From NCBI GenBank assembly GCA_030649135.1, contig JAUSGI010000008.1, positions 128,001-192,000 of the forward strand: a DNA stretch of 64,000 nt, read 5' to 3'. The notes beneath the pieces were generated by a model. The model was not told the origin of the DNA. It saw only the letters and a program-made list of their open reading frames with translations, and made no database searches. Position 1 is the first letter of the stretch, and the number at the start of each line of letters is the position of its first letter. Below are positions 3,189 through 61,163 of this stretch, piece after piece. The DNA is from a bacterium. GTDB taxonomy: Bacteria > Patescibacteriota > Minisyncoccia > Phycocordibacterales > Zambryskibacteraceae. A program made the translations under genes and the position numbers.

Positions 3189-5396
3189 GTGATGCGTTTA
3201 CTTATAGTAGAGTCGCCGTCGAAAGCCAAGACTATCGAGAAATATCTTGGTAAAGATTTTCGCGTGGTCGCGTCCGTCGGGCATATTCGCGACCTTCCCA
3301 AATCAAATAAGGCGGCTATTGATGTACCGGGTGGCTTCATACCGCACTACGAAGTGGTGAAGGGAAAAGAAAGAGTGATTTCGGAAATTAAGTCATTGTC
3401 CAAAAAAGCCGACGAAGTCTTGCTCGCGACCGACCCAGACCGCGAAGGTGAGGCTATTGCTTGGCATGTCGAGCAGGCGGTTGGATTGAAGTCTCCGAAA
3501 CGTATTGTCTTCTATGAGATAACCAAAGAAGCCGTAGAAGAAGCGCTCGAACATCCCCGAGAAATTGACACCAACCTTCGGGAAGCACAGGAAGCAAGGA
3601 GGGTTTTGGACCGTTTGGTCGGCTATGACCTTTCCGGACTAATCTGGAAAAAGGTGCGTTACGGTCTGTCCGCCGGCAGAGTGCAATCCCCCGCTCTGCG
3701 CATCGTAATGGAGCGCGAGCGCGAAATACGCGCCTTTCTACCGGTCACTTTCTGGACTATTACTGCCAATCTCGAAGATAAATCTAAAAATAATCTGGTT
3801 TTCGTCTGTTCCCAAGAACCAAATAAAAAAGAGGATGTAGAAAATATCATTAATTCTGCCAAGGTCTCCCCTTGGCAAGTTACGGACATCAAGGAAACCA
3901 AAGTGGCGCGCGCTCCGCGCGCGCCCTTCATCACCTCGACCTTGCAACAGACAGCAAGTTCTCGCCTTGGCATGGCACCCTCTCGCTCTATGTACTTTGC
4001 CCAGAGACTTTACGAAGCCGGACACATTACTTATATGCGTACCGACTCCACCAATCTTGGTGGTGCGGCGCGCAAAGAAATAGAGGAGGTGGTGAAGAAA
4101 AAATACGGAGCGAATTATTTTGAATCGCACGTCTTTGCGAAAAAATCTAAAAACGCACAAGAAGCTCACGAAGCCATTCGGCCAACGCACATGAATGTAG
4201 AAACGGCTGGGGCGACAGATGGGGAGAAAAAACTTTACCAACTAATCTGGCAGAGAACCATCTCAAGCCAAATGAAACCGGCGGAAGTCATGCGGACCAA
4301 AGTCGTGGCCAACACAGAGGTTAAACCTCTGGGATTGGAGTCCGGAGGTTTAACCTCTGGGGAAATGCCGGACTTCTGGCTCAATGGCTCGCGCATTATC
4401 TTTGACGGCTGGCTTAAGGCCGACCCACGCTCGGCTAGTGAGGATATTATCTTGCCGAAAATCTTGACAGGCGACCCGCTCAAGCTCTTGAATATAAGCT
4501 CGGAAGAAAAGCTAACCGAACCGCCCGCTCGATATTCCGAAGCAGGATTAATTAAAGAACTTGAAAAACGCGGCATCGGCCGACCGTCGACCTATGCTTC
4601 CATTATCAAGACACTTGACGACCGTGGCTATGTGGAAAAAAGGGCTAAAGCCCTTTTCCCCACCGACACAGGTGAAGTGGTCAGCTCATTTCTCGAAGAG
4701 CATTTCCCTACCTATATCAGTGATTCCTTCACTGCGGAAATGGAGGACGAGCTGGACGACATCGCCAACGGTACGCGCACATATAAGAAAACTCTGGCTG
4801 ATTTTTATACGCCATTTTCAAAAGAAGTAAAAGAGCGAGATAAAGTCGCCAAAATCACTAACCTAGGCAAAGCGCCAGCGGACTTGAAGTGCCCCGTCTG
4901 CGGAGCTAACATGATTATCAAGCTCGGCAAGAGCGGTAAGTTCTTGTCCTGCGAGAAGTACCCGGAATGCCAAGGGGCACGCACCATGGAAGGCAAGGAG
5001 CTTGAAGGGCCTAAAGATACCGGAGAAATATGCCCTAAGTGCGGCAAGGGTAATCTGGTCACTCGGGAAGGCAAGTTCGGCATGTTCACGGCTTGTTCGC
5101 GTTTCCCCAAGTGCAAGTTTGTCAAAAAAGATGAGGAGCAAGAGAAAGCAAACTCCACCGGTGTAAAATGTCCCGTATGTAAAACTGGTTTTCTGTCGGA
5201 ACGGCGCGGCCGCTTCGGAATATTCTACAGCTGCTCAAACTATCCCGACTGTAAGTATGCCATCAATGCTAAGCCTACCGGTGAGACCTGCAAACTCTGT
5301 GGTAGTTTGATGATGGAAGGTACGAAAACTATTCCGGAGAGATGTTCAGATAAAAAATGTCCCAATCACAACCCACACAAAATCAATCAGACCTAG
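3189..5396 (+). CDS. topA: DNA topoisomerase I with C-terminal zinc-ribbon repeats
   Basis: Toprim and topoisomerase IA motifs (LLIVESPSKAKTI, APFITSTLQQ, YITYMRTDS) and four CxxC...CxxC zinc ribbons at the C-terminus. Confidence 0.93.
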   Translation: MMRLLIVESPSKAKTIEKYLGKDFRVVASVGHIRDLPKSNKAAIDVPGGFIPHYEVVKGKERVISEIKSLSKKADEVLLATDPDREGEAIAWHVEQAVGLKSPKRIVFYEITKEAVEEALEHPREIDTNLREAQEARRVLDRLVGYDLSGLIWKKVRYGLSAGRVQSPALRIVMEREREIRAFLPVTFWTITANLEDKSKNNLVFVCSQEPNKKEDVENIINSAKVSPWQVTDIKETKVARAPRAPFITSTLQQTASSRLGMAPSRSMYFAQRLYEAGHITYMRTDSTNLGGAARKEIEEVVKKKYGANYFESHVFAKKSKNAQEAHEAIRPTHMNVETAGATDGEKKLYQLIWQRTISSQMKPAEVMRTKVVANTEVKPLGLESGGLTSGEMPDFWLNGSRIIFDGWLKADPRSASEDIILPKILTGDPLKLLNISSEEKLTEPPARYSEAGLIKELEKRGIGRPSTYASIIKTLDDRGYVEKRAKALFPTDTGEVVSSFLEEHFPTYISDSFTAEMEDELDDIANGTRTYKKTLADFYTPFSKEVKERDKVAKITNLGKAPADLKCPVCGANMIIKLGKSGKFLSCEKYPECQGARTMEGKELEGPKDTGEICPKCGKGNLVTREGKFGMFTACSRFPKCKFVKKDEEQEKANSTGVKCPVCKTGFLSERRGRFGIFYSCSNYPDCKYAINAKPTGETCKLCGSLMMEGTKTIPERCSDKKCPNHNPHKINQT

Positions 5397-15467: not shown

Positions 15468-15527
15468 GATTCCGCCCCGCCTCGGCGGGGCAAGCTCCGC
15501 CTTTACCCCGCTGTGGCGGGGACCGAC
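15468..15527. repeat. two GC-rich hairpins of the CCCCGCC-N3-GGCGGGG family
   Basis: CCGCCCCGCCtcgGCGGGGCAAGC and ACCCCGCtgtgGCGGGG. A related copy, CACCCCGCCatgGCGGGG...GGGGCAAGC, lies at 22350-22392. Confidence 0.5.
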
Positions 15528-22008: not shown

Positions 22009-22041
22009 TAGGCTATTATAACCTACCCATAGTTAATATAG

Positions 22042-22112
22042 TGCGAGATGCGAGAATCGAACTCGCGCCCGATGCTTGGGAAGCACCAGTTCTGCCACTA
22101 AACTAATCTCGC
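22042..22112 (-). tRNA. tRNA-Gly (anticodon CCC)
   Basis: Hand-folded. Acceptor GCGAGAT/ATCTCGC, anticodon loop TTCCCAA and T-arm GCGAG-TTCGATT-CTCGC. Confidence 0.8.
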
Positions 22113-22113
22113 A

Positions 22114-22200
22114 TGGTGCCCGGGGTGGGCATCGAACCCACACGACCTTGCGGTCACGAAATTTTAAGTCTCGCGCGTATACCAATTCCGCCACCCGGGC
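22114..22200 (-). tRNA. tRNA-Leu (anticodon TAA), long variable arm, CCA encoded
   Basis: Hand-folded. Acceptor GCCCGGG/CCCGGGC, anticodon loop CTTAAAA, variable arm TGACCGCAAGGTCGTG and T-arm GTGGG-TTCGATG-CCCAC. Confidence 0.85.
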
Positions 22201-22275
22201 TGGAGGCGTAGGCGGGAATCGAACCCGCGCATATCGGTTTTGCAGACCGCCGCGTTTCCACTTCGCCACTACGCC
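22201..22275 (-). tRNA. tRNA-Cys (anticodon GCA)
   Basis: Hand-folded. Acceptor GGCGTAG/CTACGCC, anticodon stem CGGT/ACCG, anticodon loop CTGCAAA and T-arm GCGGG-TTCGATT-CCCGC. The 3' end abuts the tRNA-Leu 5' end with no spacer. Confidence 0.75.
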
Positions 22276-22392
22276 ATTGTCCAGCTAACTAACTTTTATA
22301 CATTATCATAATTGATAAATCATTGCTTTTTTGAAATACTGTACTCTTATACCCCGCTTCACCCCGCCATGGCGGGGCGAGACGGGGCAAGC

Positions 22393-22465
22393 GCGCCTAT
22401 AGCTCAGCTGGTAGAGCAGATCCCTCTTAAGGATAAGGTCGCAGGTTCGATCCCTGCTGGGCGCA
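22393..22465 (+). tRNA. tRNA-Lys (anticodon CTT)
   Basis: Hand-folded. Acceptor GCGCCTA/TGGGCGC, D-arm GCTC-AGCTGGTA-GAGC, anticodon loop CTCTTAA and T-arm GCAGG-TTCGATC-CCTGC. Confidence 0.8.
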
Positions 22466-22467
22466 CT

Positions 22468-22548
22468 GGGCGGGTGGTGAAATGGTAGACACGCCAGTTT
22501 TAGGAACTGGTGCCGCAAGGCATGGAGGTTCAAGTCCTCTCCCGCCCA
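22468..22548 (+). tRNA. tRNA-Leu (anticodon TAG), long variable arm
   Basis: Hand-folded. Acceptor GGGCGGG/CCCGCCC, anticodon stem CCAGT/ACTGG, anticodon loop TTTAGGA, variable arm TGCCGCAAGGCATG and T-arm GGAGG-TTCAAGT-CCTCT. Confidence 0.85.
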
Positions 22549-22616
22549 CAACAACATCTTTCCTTTTCTTCGATTTTTTGCTAAAATCAGCGATATAGTT
22601 AATCTAACAAAATAAT

Positions 22617-30019: not shown

Positions 30020-30646
30020 CTAATTATAATACATATACTTGCCTTTTGTCAAACGAGTTAGGAAACTCCGACGGTGGATAACGGTTGGGCCAAACTTTCG
30101 GATCGCTTTCCGATGCTGACTGGTGCCATAGCCCTTGTGTATATGAAAATTGAATTCTGGAAATTTTTTAGAGAGTCTGACCATTCTCTTGTCTCGTATT
30201 ACTTTTGCCATGATGCTCGCAAGCGAAATAATCGGAATCTTTTCATCCCCTTTTATAACCGTCAGTTGATGTCTAAACCGGTCCGGCGCTTTTATACCTC
30301 CGTCCAAAAATACTTGAGCATCCTCCGGTACGGAAAGAGAGGCGAGGCTTCTCTTAATACCGAGTCTGATGGCGTAGGTGATGCCCTTGCGGTCAATAAT
30401 CTTTTCCGACACAAGCGAAACCGCAAAGTCGAGCACACCCTTTTTACGAGCCTCGAGAGCCAAAGCAAACCACAGTTCCCTATCACCCGCGGAGAGTTTT
30501 TTGGAATCTTTGATGCTCTTGAAAAAGTTTTTACTTGCCCTACGAAGCTTAAGCGAAGTGGGGTTGGGAATCGCCACTGCTCCTACCGCCACCGGACCGG
30601 CCAAAGGCCCTCTACCCGCTTCATCAATACCTACGACATAACTCAT
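30020..30646 (-). CDS. rnhB: ribonuclease HII
   Basis: N-terminal MSYVVGIDEAGRGPLAGPV with the DEAGRG catalytic motif. Confidence 0.9.
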   Translation of the reverse strand: MSYVVGIDEAGRGPLAGPVAVGAVAIPNPTSLKLRRASKNFFKSIKDSKKLSAGDRELWFALALEARKKGVLDFAVSLVSEKIIDRKGITYAIRLGIKRSLASLSVPEDAQVFLDGGIKAPDRFRHQLTVIKGDEKIPIISLASIMAKVIRDKRMVRLSKKFPEFNFHIHKGYGTSQHRKAIRKFGPTVIHRRSFLTRLTKGKYMYYN

Positions 30647-30682
30647 GCGTTACCGAAGATTATACCTTATAATGACCTTCTG

Positions 30683-33600
30683 ATGAATAAGTTTGTCCAC
30701 CTACATACCCATTCGCATTACTCTCTACTCGAAGCTCTGCCAAAAGTCCCGGACCTCGTCAAGAAAGCCCGTCTCTCCGGTATGAACTCGCTTGCCTTGA
30801 CGGATTCCGGCAATTTGTACGGCGCTATAGAATTTTATAAAGAATGTAAGAAACAGGACATTAAACCGATAATCGGAGTCGACTTCTACGTCGCTTTGCG
30901 CACCAGAAACGATAAAGAAGCGCGTATAGACAACGAGCATGGCCGCCTGGTACTCCTTGCCGAGAATAATCTGGGATACCGAAACCTCCTCAAACTGGTG
31001 ACCGATTCCTTCTTGGAAGGCTTCTACTACAAACCACGCATCGACAAGGAGTTGATTGAGAAATACCGCGAGGGTCTCATCGCTATTCTACCGACATCCA
31101 CTTCGGCAGATGTAGAGGAGAAAGCAAAATATTATAAAAGTATCTTCGGCCCGGACAACTTTTTTCTGGAACTTACCAGCCATCCGGAGGTGAGAGGCCA
31201 CCAAGAAAAGATGCGAGAAAGAATCGCCTTCGCCCAAAAGGCGGGGATCTCTCTGGTTGCCGCCCATGATGTCTACTACCTGGAACCGGACGATAAGTCG
31301 GCGCGAGACACCTTGCTCTCCATCCAAGGTCATCTTAATCTAAGCGGAGATAGCGGAGTCTTCGGCAAGGATGTCGAGAATCTTTCTTTCATTAGTAGCG
31401 AGGAAGCCAGAGAATACTTCAAAGAAACACCGGATGCCATAGAGAACACGCAAAAAATCGCCAGGAGATGCAATATTGAACTTGAACTCGGCAAATGGGT
31501 CTTCCCCAATTATGTGGTCGAGAGTGGCAAGTCGTATGACGAAGAGCTACATGATGTGGTTTATGCCGGATTTAAAAAGAGGAACCTGCCCCAGAATGCC
31601 GAAACATTGGAGCGAGTAGCATATGAATTAAAAATTATTTGCGGTAAGGGTTATTCTCCATACTTCCTGGTTGCCGCCGACCTGCTGCGCTATGCGCATG
31701 AGCATGGCATTTTGACCAATACCCGTGGTTCGGCCGCGGGCTCTATGGTTACCTACCTTTCGGGCATCACCACCGTTGACCCTCTCAAATATGCCCTGCC
31801 CTTTGAACGCTTCCTTAACCCGGACCGCCCCTCACCGCCGGACATTGACCTTGATATCGCGGATGACAGACGGGATGAGGTCATAGAATATGCCCGTACA
31901 AAATATGGCAAAGACCATGTAGCCCAGATCGGCACCTTCGGCACCATGATGGCCCGCGGGGCGGTACGCGACGTCACCCGAGCACTCGACTTCTCGTATA
32001 CCTTGGGCGACAAAATAGCCAAACTGATTCCGCTCGGCGCTCAAGGATTCCCCATGACCCTCAACCGAGCTATGGCGGAAAATCCGGAACTTAAAAAACT
32101 CTATGAAGAAGACGGGGAAGTAAAACGAATTATCGACATGGCTCAAAAAATAGAGGGTAATGCGCGGCATATTAGTGTTCATGCCGCCGGTGTAGTAATC
32201 TCGCCGGAACCACTCGTCGACTACACTCCCCTTCAGTACGATACCAAGGGAGAAAAGAAAATTATTACCCAGTACGACATGTACTCCATCGAGGAAACCG
32301 GGCTCTTGAAGTTTGACTTCCTGGGTATCAGAAACCTCTCCATTATTGCCGAGACTCTCGTCCGTATCGAAAAGATTGAAGGTAAATCAATAAAGATAGC
32401 GGACATACCCATAGACAATCGTAAGACATTTGAAATGCTGACTCGTGGCGAAACGGAAGGCACATTCCAACTAAACGGCGACGGTATGACGCGAGCCCTG
32501 ATGGAACTGAAACCTAACTCTATTCACGATATTAACGTTATGGTTGCCCTCTATCGTCCGGGACCGATGGACAACATCAAGGAATATATCGCAAGAAAAC
32601 ACGGACAGAAACCGACGAGCTATATCCACCCCAAAATGAAGAATTTCCTGGACACTACTTATGGGGTACTGGTTTACCAAGACGACCTCATCATGACAGC
32701 CATTGAAGTGGCCGGCTATTCCTGGGGCGAAGTCGATAAATTCCGTAAAGCGGTAGGCAAGAAAATTCCGGAAGAGATGAGAAAACAACATATTATCTTC
32801 GTCGAGGGCTGCCAAAAGAATGGCGGCATGAATAAGGAGAAGGCTGAGACGCTTTGGAAACTTTTTGAACCATTTCAGGGTTACGGCTTCAATAAAGCTC
32901 ATGCGGCCAGTTATGGTCACATCGCCTACGTCACGGCTTATTTGAAAGCAAATTTTCCCGCTATCTATATGTCCGCCGTACTTACGGCAGAATCCGGTGA
33001 TGTGGAAAAAATAGGAGTTATGATAAAAGAGTGCAAGCGCATGGGTATAGAGGTTCTGCCCCCTTCTATAAACGAGAGCTTTTCCCAATTTACTGTTGTT
33101 AAAGACAATGTTCCCCTAGGAAAGACCTCGGGGTACCCCGAGGTCTTTCCTAGGGGATACAAAATCCGTTTTGGGTTGACTACAATCAAAAATTTCGGAG
33201 AAGGCATATCCAGTTCCATTACAGCTGAAAGAAAAGTGCATGGTAAGTTCAGAGATTTAGAGGATTTCCTTGACTGCATCCGGGATAAAAATTTGAATAA
33301 AAAATCTCTTGAATCACTGATAAAATGCGGTGCTCTTGATGACATCCCCTCGACAAGCTCGGGACAAGTCGGCGAACGAGGCGTACTACTCGCCAATATG
33401 GATAACTTACTTGAATATCATCGGGAAAGAATAAATGCGCCTCAAAACCAGGACTCGCTTTTCGGTCTCATGTCCGACACATCCACTCTGCCTGGTTTAC
33501 GCCTCGCGAATGCTCCCGCCGCTACGCAAAAGGAGAAACTGCTGTGGGAAAAAGAACTGCTCGGTCTCTATATCTCCGGACATCCGCTGGAAGCATACAA

Positions 33601-33901
33601 AGATAAGCTTCTGGCTCTCCAAGTCAATATCGAGAAGCTCCCAGGCCTACACGAAGGTGATACGGCGGTCATTGCCGGACTGGTCGAGGAAATCCGCGAC
33701 GTTCTTACCAAAGGAAATGAGCGTATGGTCTTCATGCGCTTGGCAGATTTGTCCGGCATTATCGAGGTGGCTATCTTTCCGAGTATACTCAACGAATTTC
33801 GTTCTTTCATCCAGCCGGAAGCATGTATAGCTATCAAGGGCAAAGTCTCGAAACGGAAAGGTGAGACCTCATTCATTGCCGAAAAGATTAAGGCCTTGTA
33901 G
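30683..33901 (+). CDS. dnaE: DNA polymerase III alpha subunit
   Basis: PHP domain HLHTHSHYSLLEA, palm and fingers, HhH (GLTTIKNFGEG) and an OB fold. The start is set at MNKFVHL because the track ORF 5' extension is antisense to rnhB. Confidence 0.93.
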   Translation: MNKFVHLHTHSHYSLLEALPKVPDLVKKARLSGMNSLALTDSGNLYGAIEFYKECKKQDIKPIIGVDFYVALRTRNDKEARIDNEHGRLVLLAENNLGYRNLLKLVTDSFLEGFYYKPRIDKELIEKYREGLIAILPTSTSADVEEKAKYYKSIFGPDNFFLELTSHPEVRGHQEKMRERIAFAQKAGISLVAAHDVYYLEPDDKSARDTLLSIQGHLNLSGDSGVFGKDVENLSFISSEEAREYFKETPDAIENTQKIARRCNIELELGKWVFPNYVVESGKSYDEELHDVVYAGFKKRNLPQNAETLERVAYELKIICGKGYSPYFLVAADLLRYAHEHGILTNTRGSAAGSMVTYLSGITTVDPLKYALPFERFLNPDRPSPPDIDLDIADDRRDEVIEYARTKYGKDHVAQIGTFGTMMARGAVRDVTRALDFSYTLGDKIAKLIPLGAQGFPMTLNRAMAENPELKKLYEEDGEVKRIIDMAQKIEGNARHISVHAAGVVISPEPLVDYTPLQYDTKGEKKIITQYDMYSIEETGLLKFDFLGIRNLSIIAETLVRIEKIEGKSIKIADIPIDNRKTFEMLTRGETEGTFQLNGDGMTRALMELKPNSIHDINVMVALYRPGPMDNIKEYIARKHGQKPTSYIHPKMKNFLDTTYGVLVYQDDLIMTAIEVAGYSWGEVDKFRKAVGKKIPEEMRKQHIIFVEGCQKNGGMNKEKAETLWKLFEPFQGYGFNKAHAASYGHIAYVTAYLKANFPAIYMSAVLTAESGDVEKIGVMIKECKRMGIEVLPPSINESFSQFTVVKDNVPLGKTSGYPEVFPRGYKIRFGLTTIKNFGEGISSSITAERKVHGKFRDLEDFLDCIRDKNLNKKSLESLIKCGALDDIPSTSSGQVGERGVLLANMDNLLEYHRERINAPQNQDSLFGLMSDTSTLPGLRLANAPAATQKEKLLWEKELLGLYISGHPLEAYKDKLLALQVNIEKLPGLHEGDTAVIAGLVEEIRDVLTKGNERMVFMRLADLSGIIEVAIFPSILNEFRSFIQPEACIAIKGKVSKRKGETSFIAEKIKAL
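33113..33156. repeat. 44 bp perfect palindrome inside the dnaE coding sequence
   Basis: CCCCTAGGAAAGACCTCGGGGT|ACCCCGAGGTCTTTCCTAGGGG, where the right arm is the exact reverse complement of the left. It encodes PLGKTSGYPEVFPRG. Confidence 0.9.
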
Positions 33902-45700: not shown

Positions 45701-45739
45701 AAAAAAACCGGCGGGACACCCAGAGTGGGTGTCCGCCGG
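45701..45739 (-). terminator. rho-independent terminator for the minus-strand gene
   Basis: Plus strand shows AAAAAAA then CCGGCGGGACACCC-agag-TGGGTGTCCGCCGG. On the minus strand this is a 13-14 bp GC stem followed by TTTTTTT. Confidence 0.7.
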
Positions 45740-48004: not shown

Positions 48005-48152
48005 ACAGGAAGTGTTCGTGTGCCGTCGCCAGCTTTCAGCTGGCGGCGGCACTTTTATTTATAAAATTCTATCACATCTATTGACATAATTGAATCAAAG
48101 GTGTATAATTCTAGTAGATGCTCTCCACAAACTAACAGAAAGGACAGGCGAA

Positions 48153-48689: not shown

Positions 48690-48726
48690 GCGCCACGACC
48701 TCGGAGGTCGTGGCGCTCTTTTCTTT
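48690..48726 (+). terminator. rho-independent terminator
   Basis: GCGCCACGACCT-cgg-AGGTCGTGGCGC followed by TCTTTTCTTT. Confidence 0.8.
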
Positions 48727-52114: not shown

Positions 52115-52135
52115 TGTCAAAGACCGTCTTTGACA
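52115..52135 (+). repeat. REP-A copy 1 (TGTCAAAGACCGTCTTTGACA)
   Basis: Exact palindrome located 10 nt upstream of the RAYT start. Confidence 0.85.
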
Positions 52136-52145
52136 TAATAGGTTC

Positions 52146-52793
52146 ATGGGTAATAGAGACTATAAAAAATTTGCCACTGGAACTATCTTTCATATATACA
52201 ATAGAGGCAATAACCGAGAAAAAATTTTCCATGATGAGCAGGACTATAAAGCGCTAATATTTAGAATTGGTCTGGCACTAGGATTCGAAGAAAAAGAACT
52301 GTCACATCAATTATGTCACCAACCATATTCAAGAATCAGGATTACAGGCACACATAAAGGAAAATTCAAGCTACACGCTTTTTGTCTTATGCCAAATCAT
52401 TTTCACTTACTTATCGAACAGTGTGAAGATGTGCCTATATCGAAAATTATCTCGAAAATATGTGCAAGTTATGCTAAATATGTAAATAAAAAATACAAAA
52501 GAGTCGGGCATGTATTTCAGGATAAATTTAAAGCAGTACTTATGGAATCAAATGAACAACTTATGTGGATTTGCACATATATACACATGAATGCAGTGAA
52601 GGACAGTATGGTCAAACATCCAGATGAATATGTATGGAGTAGCTACAATGACTATACAACTGACAGAAATCTGCCAATCATAAATACTGACTTTTTGATC
52701 TCACTATTTGGTGATAAAAATAGTTTCAAAAAAGAGACCCTCCGCCCTTACTCAGATAGCCTGTCAAAGACCGTCTTTGACATTAAGAGTTGA
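52146..52793 (+). CDS. REP-associated tyrosine transposase (RAYT; IS200/IS605 Y1 HUH family)
   Basis: HUH motif MPNHFHLLIE and catalytic Tyr region YVWSSY. The last 10 codons are encoded by REP-A copy 2. Confidence 0.85.
   Translation: MGNRDYKKFATGTIFHIYNRGNNREKIFHDEQDYKALIFRIGLALGFEEKELSHQLCHQPYSRIRITGTHKGKFKLHAFCLMPNHFHLLIEQCEDVPISKIISKICASYAKYVNKKYKRVGHVFQDKFKAVLMESNEQLMWICTYIHMNAVKDSMVKHPDEYVWSSYNDYTTDRNLPIINTDFLISLFGDKNSFKKETLRPYSDSLSKTVFDIKS
52762..52782 (+). repeat. REP-A copy 2
   Basis: Identical 21-mer, overlapping the RAYT 3' end. Confidence 0.85.
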
Positions 52794-53611: not shown

Positions 53612-53632
53612 ATGTCAAAGACGGTCTTTGAC
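53612..53632 (-). repeat. REP-A copy 3 (inverted orientation, TGTCAAAGACGGTCTTTGACA)
   Basis: Reverse complement of copies 1 and 2. Confidence 0.85.
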
Positions 53633-53678
53633 ATACACATACATTTGAGAATGGAGATTTTTTCACAAGCATAAATAA

Positions 53679-58514: not shown

Positions 58515-58542
58515 GGGCAGGTCATCGTGACCTGCCCTTTTT
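58515..58542 (+). terminator. rho-independent terminator, preceded by a second hairpin GGGGAG-actta-ACTCCCC
   Basis: GGGCAGGTCA-tcg-TGACCTGCCC followed by TTTTT. Confidence 0.75.
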
Positions 58543-60446: not shown

Positions 60447-61163
60447 TGTCAAACACTGGGTGTTAGACAACTATAGGATCTTCAAATAATCTAGCTCTTC
60501 TTCTAGAAGTTTTGCTGGACTTGTCCTAGTAAACTCTTGGTATTTGTCTGGGCCTTTGAATTGACCTAGAACGATTTCTGATAAAAGCAGACTTCCCCAT
60601 CGATTTTCTTTTATAAAATCTTGATAGCTTGACCAAGGATATTGGTCTTCTTTCTTAAACCACTTCCCAATCTCTCTCGGGTTTCTATGAATATAGCTAG
60701 ACAGATATAAAAGCTGATGATCACCTTCTATATGAACCGCACGATAAGGCCCTTGAAAAACATGTCCAGATTTATCATATCTGGTATTGTAATATTTGGC
60801 ATAAGCATTAAGCACTCTCTGCATATAAGCTGCTATGCCTTCTTCTTCAACTTCTTTGACCAATAAGTGGAAATGGTTTGGCATGATACGGAAAGAAACA
60901 AGCTCAACTGTACGCTTTTTAACAATCTCCTCTGTATTATCTAACACCCGGTGTTTGACGAAATCCTTTACTGACCTACCAACCTGTGGAAAAGTTACTT
61001 CTGATTGGAAGTAAAGAATGAGGAAAAGAAATCTGTTGTAGTCTCCTGTATCATGAAAAATAACTTGTTTGTGTACACCCCTATTACACAAATGATAATA
61101 CTCGTTTGGAGACAACCGTGTTCTTCTCATATATTCATTATGTCAAATACCCGGTGTTTGACA
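60447..61163. mobile_element. second REP–RAYT module (REP-B, RAYT, REP-B)
   Basis: Imperfect palindromes TGTCAAACACTGGGTGTTAGACA (60447-60469) and TGTCAAATACCCGGTGTTTGACA (61141-61163) abut the stop and start of the transposase gene. Confidence 0.7.
60471..61130 (-). CDS. REP-associated tyrosine transposase (RAYT; IS200/IS605 Y1 HUH family), second copy
   Basis: HUH motif MPNHFHLLVKE and YPWSSY. A partial REP-B (AACACCCGGTGTTTGAC) lies inside the gene at about 60943-60959. Confidence 0.85.
   Translation of the reverse strand: MRRTRLSPNEYYHLCNRGVHKQVIFHDTGDYNRFLFLILYFQSEVTFPQVGRSVKDFVKHRVLDNTEEIVKKRTVELVSFRIMPNHFHLLVKEVEEEGIAAYMQRVLNAYAKYYNTRYDKSGHVFQGPYRAVHIEGDHQLLYLSSYIHRNPREIGKWFKKEDQYPWSSYQDFIKENRWGSLLLSEIVLGQFKGPDKYQEFTRTSPAKLLEEELDYLKIL

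Follow-up and report, generated by a model that had tools for sequence, protein, structure and literature searches.

Repetitive extragenic palindromic (REP) elements, as known from Pseudomonas fluorescens and E. coli, are short self-complementary units, an inverted pair of which forms a longer hairpin, the REPIN, and they are linked to REP-associated tyrosine transposases, the RAYTs (PMC3116915, PMC3337134, PMC3479197). Here, we describe a 46-bp perfect palindrome that lies in frame within dnaE, the gene for DNA polymerase III alpha, in a 64-kb stretch of a Patescibacteria contig from a Parcubacteria/Zambryskibacteria-like genome (JAUSGI010000008.1; the whole stretch of 64,000 nucleotides is referred to as the window). 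The palindrome is probably a REPIN-like, non-autonomous element made of a doubled REP-type hairpin, and its family is associated with RAYT-like genes in related Patescibacteria. Like the known systems, it is built from a short self-complementary unit whose inverted pair forms a longer hairpin; the unit brackets a Y1/HUH gene adjacent to recA in three related genomes (L007, L008 and L011), and several unrelated unit families each occur beside their own transposase-like gene. Unlike those systems, the dnaE element belongs to the translated part of an essential gene, its doublet, with 46 bp and no spacer, is much shorter and lacks a GTAG tag, the apparent copy number is low (one doublet in 64 kb, and transposase flanks only in the relatives), the transposase is distant from the curated RAYT models, and the lineage is Patescibacteria. 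We found no report in the literature linking RAYTs or REPINs with Patescibacteria or the candidate phyla radiation (CPR).

Palindromic elements of the RPE-1 type are about 100-150 bp long and are restricted to Rickettsia, and to our knowledge no transposase association has been established for these Rickettsia palindromic elements (RPEs). The original prediction likened the dnaE palindrome to these elements, the classic examples of palindromes in frame. The likeness holds in so far as a palindromic repeat is found in frame in a functional, essential protein gene of a small genome, where it is apparently tolerated, but membership of the RPE family is very unlikely given the length of 46 bp, the different phylum and the match of the doubled 21-nt unit to hairpins that flank RAYT-like genes. 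RPEs are themselves cited in PMC3733652 (refs 13-14).

The closest precedent is the survey by Di Nocera et al. 2013 (PMC3733652), which describes REP singlets and dimers in frame in several phyla, for example in Opitutus terrae, Thauera and R. conorii, with dimers and grouped repeats encoding 20-30 aa. According to the same paper, REPs are in excess in DNA replication and repair genes, which are sometimes the only decorated genes of a genome, and they include a REP in R. conorii dnaE (RC1211, aa 853-861 of 1181; Additional file 3) and a dimer in O. terrae dnaE2. An in-frame position in a surface loop is unusual yet documented for REP repeats, and the R. conorii insertion could lie near the same loop as the insertion described here. 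The GTAG/CGTC REPs of that survey differ from the window's element in unit sequence, in their tags, of which the dnaE unit has neither, and in phylum; and the reuse of the same DnaE and TopA loops by different families, which we describe below, is a same-site recurrence not met in the passages of that survey considered here. What is new here is the sequence families, the phylum and the same-loop recurrence, as intragenic REPs, including the one in Rickettsia dnaE, have been known since 2013.

The IS200/IS605 elements, with their palindrome-associated and miniature inverted-repeat transposable elements (PATEs and MITEs), are also related, in that the RAYT-like protein belongs to the same Y1/HUH superfamily (TnpA 2XM3, 2XMA) and the probable mechanism would, by analogy, use hairpins in single-stranded DNA. 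Unlike IS200/IS605, the present element has no insertion sequence (IS) body and no subterminal left-end/right-end asymmetry but is a simple symmetric hairpin, and the transposase-like gene is found at the same place by recA in three related genomes. Unlike a MITE, the whole dnaE element is one palindrome, with no terminal inverted repeats around non-palindromic DNA; also, no direct repeat is found beside it (AATGT/T...A/TACAA), so the target-site duplication of a MITE is absent. An intein, a MITE or an IS was considered for the dnaE insert and rejected, as no such features are present.

The dnaE palindrome and the loop that it occupies

The host gene and the parts of the palindrome are the following:

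30683..33901, + strand: dnaE, DNA polymerase III alpha, 1072 aa, the host gene.
33112..33157, + strand: probable REP doublet (REPIN-like), a 46-bp palindrome in frame in dnaE that encodes (V)PLGKTSGYPEVFPRG, from inverted-repeat, copy and folding analyses.
33113..33133, + strand: REP unit 1, CCCCTAGG-AAAGA-CCTCGGGG, 20/21 identical to the RAYT-flanking hairpin CCCCTAGGAAAGACCTAGGGG, with an A-to-C change that removes an in-frame TAG.
33136..33156, - strand: REP unit 2, the exact reverse complement of unit 1, with the mirrored change CCCCGAGG.

The long open reading frame (ORF) at 30074-33901 has a spurious 5' extension, the true start of dnaE being near 30683. The inverted repeat at 33112-33157 is perfect and without spacer, with 23-nt arms TCCCCTAGGAAAGACCTCGGGGT and ACCCCGAGGTCTTTCCTAGGGGA; the original prediction had recognized a perfect zero-loop palindrome but gave it 44 bp, one base too few on either side. 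The arm occurs at only these two positions in the window, allowing up to three mismatches, and in none of 100 dinucleotide-preserving shuffles. The hairpin has a folding energy of -27.5 kcal/mol as single-stranded DNA and -46.4 kcal/mol as RNA (z about -9), a stability reached by none of 200 shuffles.

Each half of the palindrome is a hairpin in its own right. The 21-nt unit CCCC-T-AGG AAAGA CCT-C-GGGG (CCCCNAGG-N5-CCTNGGGG as a pattern with free loop) has a stem of 4+3 bp with one mismatch, where the consensus unit has a perfect 8-bp stem, and it is thus a short (about 20-40 nt) imperfect palindrome of the REP kind. The two units, on opposite strands, pair as a 23-bp perfect stem, which is the inverted orientation of a REPIN. 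The unit ends carry neither GTAG nor CGTC; the borders read TT...AA in the consensus, or T...T/A...A.

The palindrome encodes PLGKTSGYPEVFPRG (aa 811-825), and thereby adds about 15 codons (45 nt) to dnaE. The 46-mer is open in one of three frames, and, because it is a palindrome, both strands are equally open in that one frame only. If the doublet were built from the consensus unit, none of its three frames would be open, since ACC-TAG-GGG brings a stop. The dnaE copy instead reads ACC-TCG-GGG, and the other arm shows the mirrored change CCC-GAG. The sole difference from the consensus unit therefore removes the in-frame TAG, with its mirror image on the second arm, and the observed version is the only viable form of the element in an essential gene.

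The reading frame and the absence of the segment in relatives bear out the proposal that dnaE contains an in-frame insertion. The closest named relatives belong to Zambryskibacteria and other Parcubacteria. In 120 DnaE homologues (68-82% identity), SQFTVV and KIRFGLTTIKNFG on either side of the insert hardly vary, and most of the proteins have a turn of 4-6 residues at the insert position, typically NEKPY (FTVV-NEKP-YKIRFGL); at the DNA level, an uninserted loop reads, for example, ...AATGAAAAACC... The window's 15 residues are unique among the 120, and the loop of the closest relative (82% identity) differs from them and is not palindromic. The identical DnaE protein is known from one assembly only (1 member on 1 contig, a 216,895-bp NCBI contig listed as 'MAG: bacterium'). 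In alignments with solved structures, a gap of 18 residues coincides with the insert; it lies between V883 and G884 in Thermus (Taq) Pol III alpha and between V853 and G854 in M. tuberculosis DnaE1. The site immediately precedes the helix-hairpin-helix (HhH) motif, which supports the predicted position between the fingers and this motif. In an AlphaFold model (62 homologues), the insert tips a beta-hairpin of strands 803-807 and 826-830, and residues 809-823 have a predicted local distance difference test (pLDDT) score below 50, a low confidence as expected of a flexible loop. The model indicates that the insert lies in a floppy surface loop of the polymerase. The pre-HhH loop can be regarded as a natural, tolerated insertion site in Pol III alpha.

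Repeat units beside and inside RAYT-like genes

Of particular interest is the similarity of the arms to hairpins that flank transposase genes. A scan for CCCCNAGGAAAGACCTNGGGG over 185,579 genomes, one genome per species, identifies eight loci, where about four would be expected by chance by our own estimate. Four of these are unrelated GC-rich, terminator-like hairpins; the other four are in Patescibacteria and contain CCCCTAGGAAAGACCTAGGGG, one base off the dnaE arm. Each dnaE arm (CCCCTAGGAAAGACCTCGGGG) is 20/21 identical to this hairpin, which flanks IS200-like Y1/HUH (RAYT-like) genes in three Patescibacteria genomes, and the insert is therefore read as a REP doublet of REPIN-like form. 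In L008 and L011, two copies of CCCCTAGGAAAGACCTAGGGG bracket an ORF of 225-230 aa that adjoins recA, and in L007 the same ORF next to recA is bracketed as well, the second copy of the unit having one mismatch. In the four representative genomes with the unit, every exact copy is next to the transposase gene or at the end of a contig. The contig-end case is L009, a Saccharibacteria contig (CAYOPK010000018.1) that starts exactly at a CCCCTAGGAAAGACCTAGGGG copy (1-21), as if the assembly broke at the repeat; no RAYT-like gene is found within the 8 kb examined of this locus.

The recA-linked ORF matches Pfam Y1_Tnp (PF01797, IS200-like) with E about 1e-9 to 1e-10, above the Pfam cut-off, and its best NCBIfam family is REP_Tyr_transpos (REP-associated tyrosine transposase), below the curated cut-off. 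The HUH (HFH) and Tyr (Y-x-H-x-N) motifs are invariant in ten RAYT-like proteins; single-sequence PDB searches with RAYT-like proteins gave no match. At its 3' side the transposase gene runs into the unit, so that the two overlap, and twelve close homologues of the transposase end in SPRKDLG or SPRSFLG, which is the translated unit in either loop orientation. About ten more distant homologues end in PLGKT or PLGKA followed by a stop; judged from the peptides, these ends would correspond to the dnaE reading frame of the unit, its own TAG serving as the stop. A unit that brackets the recA-adjacent Y1/HUH gene, together with an inverted doublet, is the defining REP/REPIN-RAYT arrangement (PMC3116915, PMC3337134).

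A second family, GACAAGGTCSGACCTTGTC, is dispersed. A metagenome scan for this unit returned 93 stretches, and the analysis covers 80 of the 93, with 91 sites. There are 73 distinct flanks, and the conserved block ends sharply at T-unit-A, with 21-nt boundaries, as expected for a dispersed element; three separate loci lie on one 322-kb contig. At six or more loci, RAYT-like genes are bracketed by the unit, and several of these genes also contain it in frame, so that a transposase-like protein is decorated by its own repeat. REP units inside RAYT-like genes, also at the C-terminus, are seen in L027, L028, L043, L047, L050 and L059; in one example, ...YIHLNPxx-(L)TRSDLV-TYPYSSY, the unit follows just past the catalytic Tyr motif. 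Also, 42 of the 91 sites lie 30 nt or more within open frames that span 150 aa or more, with Pfam hosts that include RecJ, TsaD, ArgRS, LeuRS, Obg, an HhH-GPD glycosylase (Nth), Dus and transketolase, and with in-frame doublets that encode peptides such as TRSDLVSKQGPTL. Given this number and variety of intragenic sites, a tendency to lie in frame in housekeeping genes, not limited to those for DNA enzymes, is general among such repeats of this group. REP-like hairpins that flank RAYT-like genes thus occur in Patescibacteria, often inside genes and translated, and for annotation purposes they account for many hypervariable insertions in core CPR proteins.

The window has RAYT-like genes of its own, each with other repeats:

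52146..52793, + strand: RAYT-like Y1/HUH transposase gene, flanked by 21-nt palindromes TGTCAAAGAC[C/G]GTCTTTGACA.
52115-52135, 52762-52782 and 53613-53633: the TGTCAAAGAC[C/G]GTCTTTGACA palindromes.
60471..61130, - strand: second RAYT-like gene, with flanks TGTCAAACACTGGGTGTTAGACA (60447-60469) and TGTCAAATACCCGGTGTTTGACA (61141-61163).

Both proteins, found by tblastn, are 36-39% identical to the recA-linked RAYT-like protein. The near-palindromes of the second gene (TGTCAAAYAC...GGTGTTWGACA) are distinct from the dnaE unit family, and a related copy is located inside the coding sequence of that gene, at 60938-60961. The third copy of the first family lies past the neighbouring methyltransferase gene, just upstream of gyrA. 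The original prediction had tied the dnaE arms to the repeats at 52.1-53.6 kb. A 7-mer is indeed common to both, and these repeats are REP-like in that they flank the RAYT-like gene at 52146-52793; however, the likeness extends to the 7-mer only (about a 3% random chance by our own estimate), and AAAGA is loop in one unit and stem in the other, so that membership of one family is rejected. A cognate transposase in the window is likewise rejected, both RAYT-like genes having other flanking repeats; the 64 kb also contain no recA and no further CCCCTAGG/CCTAGGGG 8-mer.

Recurrent hairpins in the DnaE and TopA loops

Hairpins of other sequence occupy the same DnaE loop in other lineages. The DNA of eight further dnaE orthologues was compared, and five of the eight contain perfect hairpins at this loop, with arms of 19-24 nt:

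L001: GGACAAGGTCCGACCTTGTCAG-8 nt-reverse complement, perfect hairpin.
L002: CCGACAAGGTCCGACCTTGTC-3 nt-reverse complement, perfect hairpin.
L003: GGACAAGGTTCGACCTTGT-5 nt-reverse complement, perfect hairpin, with one change compensated on both arms.
L012: 48-bp zero-spacer palindrome AACCCAGAGGCAATTCCTCTGTAG/CTACAGAGG..., perfect, with GTAG/CTAC at its centre.
L013: GTCCAAGCCCTCCCCTTGGAT-10 nt-reverse complement, perfect hairpin.
L014: nested hairpin.
L112: NPARTTDIVQSGG, a decayed hairpin with 11/13 pairs.
L015: PPSSETTARQR, the closest relative, no hairpin.

Each arm of the relatives' hairpins is nearly self-complementary in itself, and the doublets stem from at least four sequence families. 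In a neighbour-joining tree with the loop masked, the DnaE proteins with a hairpin lie scattered among sisters with the short loop, which implies several independent gains, although the tree is approximate and distance-based. In addition, the GACAAGGTC units show no difference from one dnaE gene to another, although identity at the flanking third codon positions is only 36-52%. Eight perfect hairpins have 174 stem pairs in total, every one of them Watson-Crick and none of them G-T, which argues for an origin or homogenisation at the DNA level over selection on RNA structure. That every long DnaE loop is a fresh repeat is rejected by L015, which has no hairpin, and L112, in which it is decayed. 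Two more loop types, PPS[SP]E[TA]TA[RS][QR]R (P0002, P0037, P0058, P0082 and P0111) and NPARTTDIVQSGG (P0011, P0012 and P0081), are each shared by lineages that the tree does not place as sisters, and may be old repeat insertions or exchanged gene segments.

The window contains a second in-frame doublet, in the gene for topoisomerase TopA, and the DNA of three relatives (L109, L110 and L111) was checked at the corresponding loop:

4315..4359, + strand: in-frame hairpin doublet in topA (3189-5396, +), CAGAGGTTAAACCTCTGG-9 nt-CCGGAGGTTTAACCTCTG, peptide TEVKPLGLESGGLTSG.
L110: GTGAAGGTCAGACCTTCAC-12 nt-GTGAAGGTCTGACCTTCAC, perfect.
L111: 50-bp zero-spacer palindrome, perfect.
L109: GACAAGGT-family doublet, 19/20 pairs.

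The topA doublet of the window has 18-nt arms, 17/18 pairs and a 9-nt spacer. The baseline TopA loop is VVANIDGEKIPDFWL, and 68 of 120 TopA homologues exceed it by at least five residues. Two other short perfect hairpins of topA, at 3905-3925 (GGCGCGCGC-TCC-GCGCGCGCC) and 4638-4657 (AAAAGGGCT-AA-AGCCCTTTT), were rejected as insertions since their peptides are conserved (ARAPRAP) or native in homologues.

The reuse of one DnaE and one TopA loop by different families provides a testable case for target preference or for effects on replication proteins, a question already raised for other phyla in 2013. A site that is very permissive, with strong purging at other places, could account for the recurrence, as could a target preference or a benefit. 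A stronger proposal, which we regard as unlikely but worth stating, is that the beta-hairpin tips of DnaE (pre-HhH) and TopA are preferred landing or retention 'safe harbours' for RAYT-mobilised doublets across Parcubacteria, colonised repeatedly and independently by unrelated REP families. The cause would then be either a target preference of transposition or some benefit of the hairpin or the extra loop to element or host, and, if true, a domesticated transposon system of ultra-small genomes would have its regular niche in essential-gene loops.

Origin of the dnaE hairpin and other hairpins of the window

By analogy with E. coli TnpA-REP and IS200/IS605 (PMC3479197, PMC6006769), the transposase would recognise the folded hairpin in single-stranded DNA at the replication fork, and would then cut and rejoin it, which would carry copies of units or doublets to new sites. 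A REP doublet that entered dnaE in this way probably survives because it adds 45 nt, is stop-free in one usable frame and lengthens a flexible hairpin tip. The insert is most likely tolerated rather than useful, and its perfect symmetry points to a young copy or to two arms homogenised at the DNA level. Several points weigh against a REPIN-like origin. The element is inside dnaE and translated, and so is not extragenic in the sense of REP/REPIN-RAYT systems; its exact sequence comes from one assembly only; and in the 64-kb window the unit occurs in this one doublet only, a cognate transposase being likewise absent. The 120 best matches to the cognate RAYT-like protein all lie on contigs of a length other than 216,895 bp, the length recorded for the contig with the identical DnaE and TopA. 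The RAYT-like proteins score 61 and 40.7 against NCBIfam REP_Tyr_transpos (cut-off 80), and the profile of the ten proteins matches E. coli TnpA-REP (4ER8) weakly, with E about 0.002, and ISDra2 TnpA equally well (E about 0.002). The dnaE hairpin is the sole long perfect hairpin within 6-15 kb of each relative examined, which fits a site-specific phenomenon better than free dispersal, and transposition itself is something that we infer from analogy.

The solitary position of these hairpins, and their recurrence at the same DnaE and TopA loops in many lineages, would also suit a domesticated repeat selected for a function, either in the RNA, where a translational pause or an RNase III site would tune expression, or in the DNA, as a protein-binding site or cruciform. 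The very stable stems would suit it too, and PMC3733652 argues that chance is an unlikely explanation of REPs in replication and repair genes. We consider such a selected hairpin improbable, since most close relatives, including the nearest one (82% identity), are without a hairpin, the sequences belong to unrelated families that are also present in numerous unrelated housekeeping genes, older copies undergo decay (L112, 11/13 pairs), and the zero G-U-type pairs in 174 stem pairs would be unusual under RNA-level selection.

Very improbable, in our estimate, is a local inverted duplication with no transposition of a doublet, in which a template switch at replication copied about 24 nt (33135-33158) in reverse, from an ancestor VPLGKTSGY-KIRF that was native sequence or an earlier single REP unit. 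Removal of 33135-33158 does leave an open frame, ...VPLGKTSGYKIRF, with 'GY' at both junctions; zero-spacer perfect palindromes (the window, L012 and L111) are of the kind that fold-back synthesis yields, and single units occur in frame elsewhere. Yet this explanation accounts for the doubling and not for the origin of the unit, which is still 20/21 identical to a RAYT-flanking REP, and the single-unit state VPLGKTSGY is not found among the 120 homologues; moreover, doublets with 3-12 nt spacers in other lineages resemble the inverted REP pairs, or REPINs, described in PMC3337134 and PMC3116915. An assembly or amplification artefact, a chimeric fold-back at the hairpin that is absent from the organism, would explain why the exact protein is on one contig only. 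It is nevertheless extremely improbable, as the frame is kept and stop-free in the sole permissive frame, both flanks are collinear with homologues, and analogous perfect hairpins are found at the same codon position in independent JGI, ENA, Logan and NCBI assemblies.

Apart from the doublets and the repeats of the RAYT-like genes, the window contains terminator-like perfect GC-rich hairpins (8-13 bp stems, 1-3 nt loops) just downstream of genes, at 15474-15491, 45714-45734, 48027-48045, 48690-48716 and 58515-58537. In total, there are 18 perfect hairpins with a stem of at least 8 bp and a loop of at most 3 nt in the window, versus 1-5 in ten mononucleotide shuffles. An Rfam search of the window identified tRNAs only. 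These include a cluster of five at 22041-22549, on both strands (Gly, Leu and Cys on one side, Lys and Leu on the other), and a 16-bp perfect palindrome, CCCCGCCATGGCGGGG (22362-22377), is located in the divergent spacer of this cluster.

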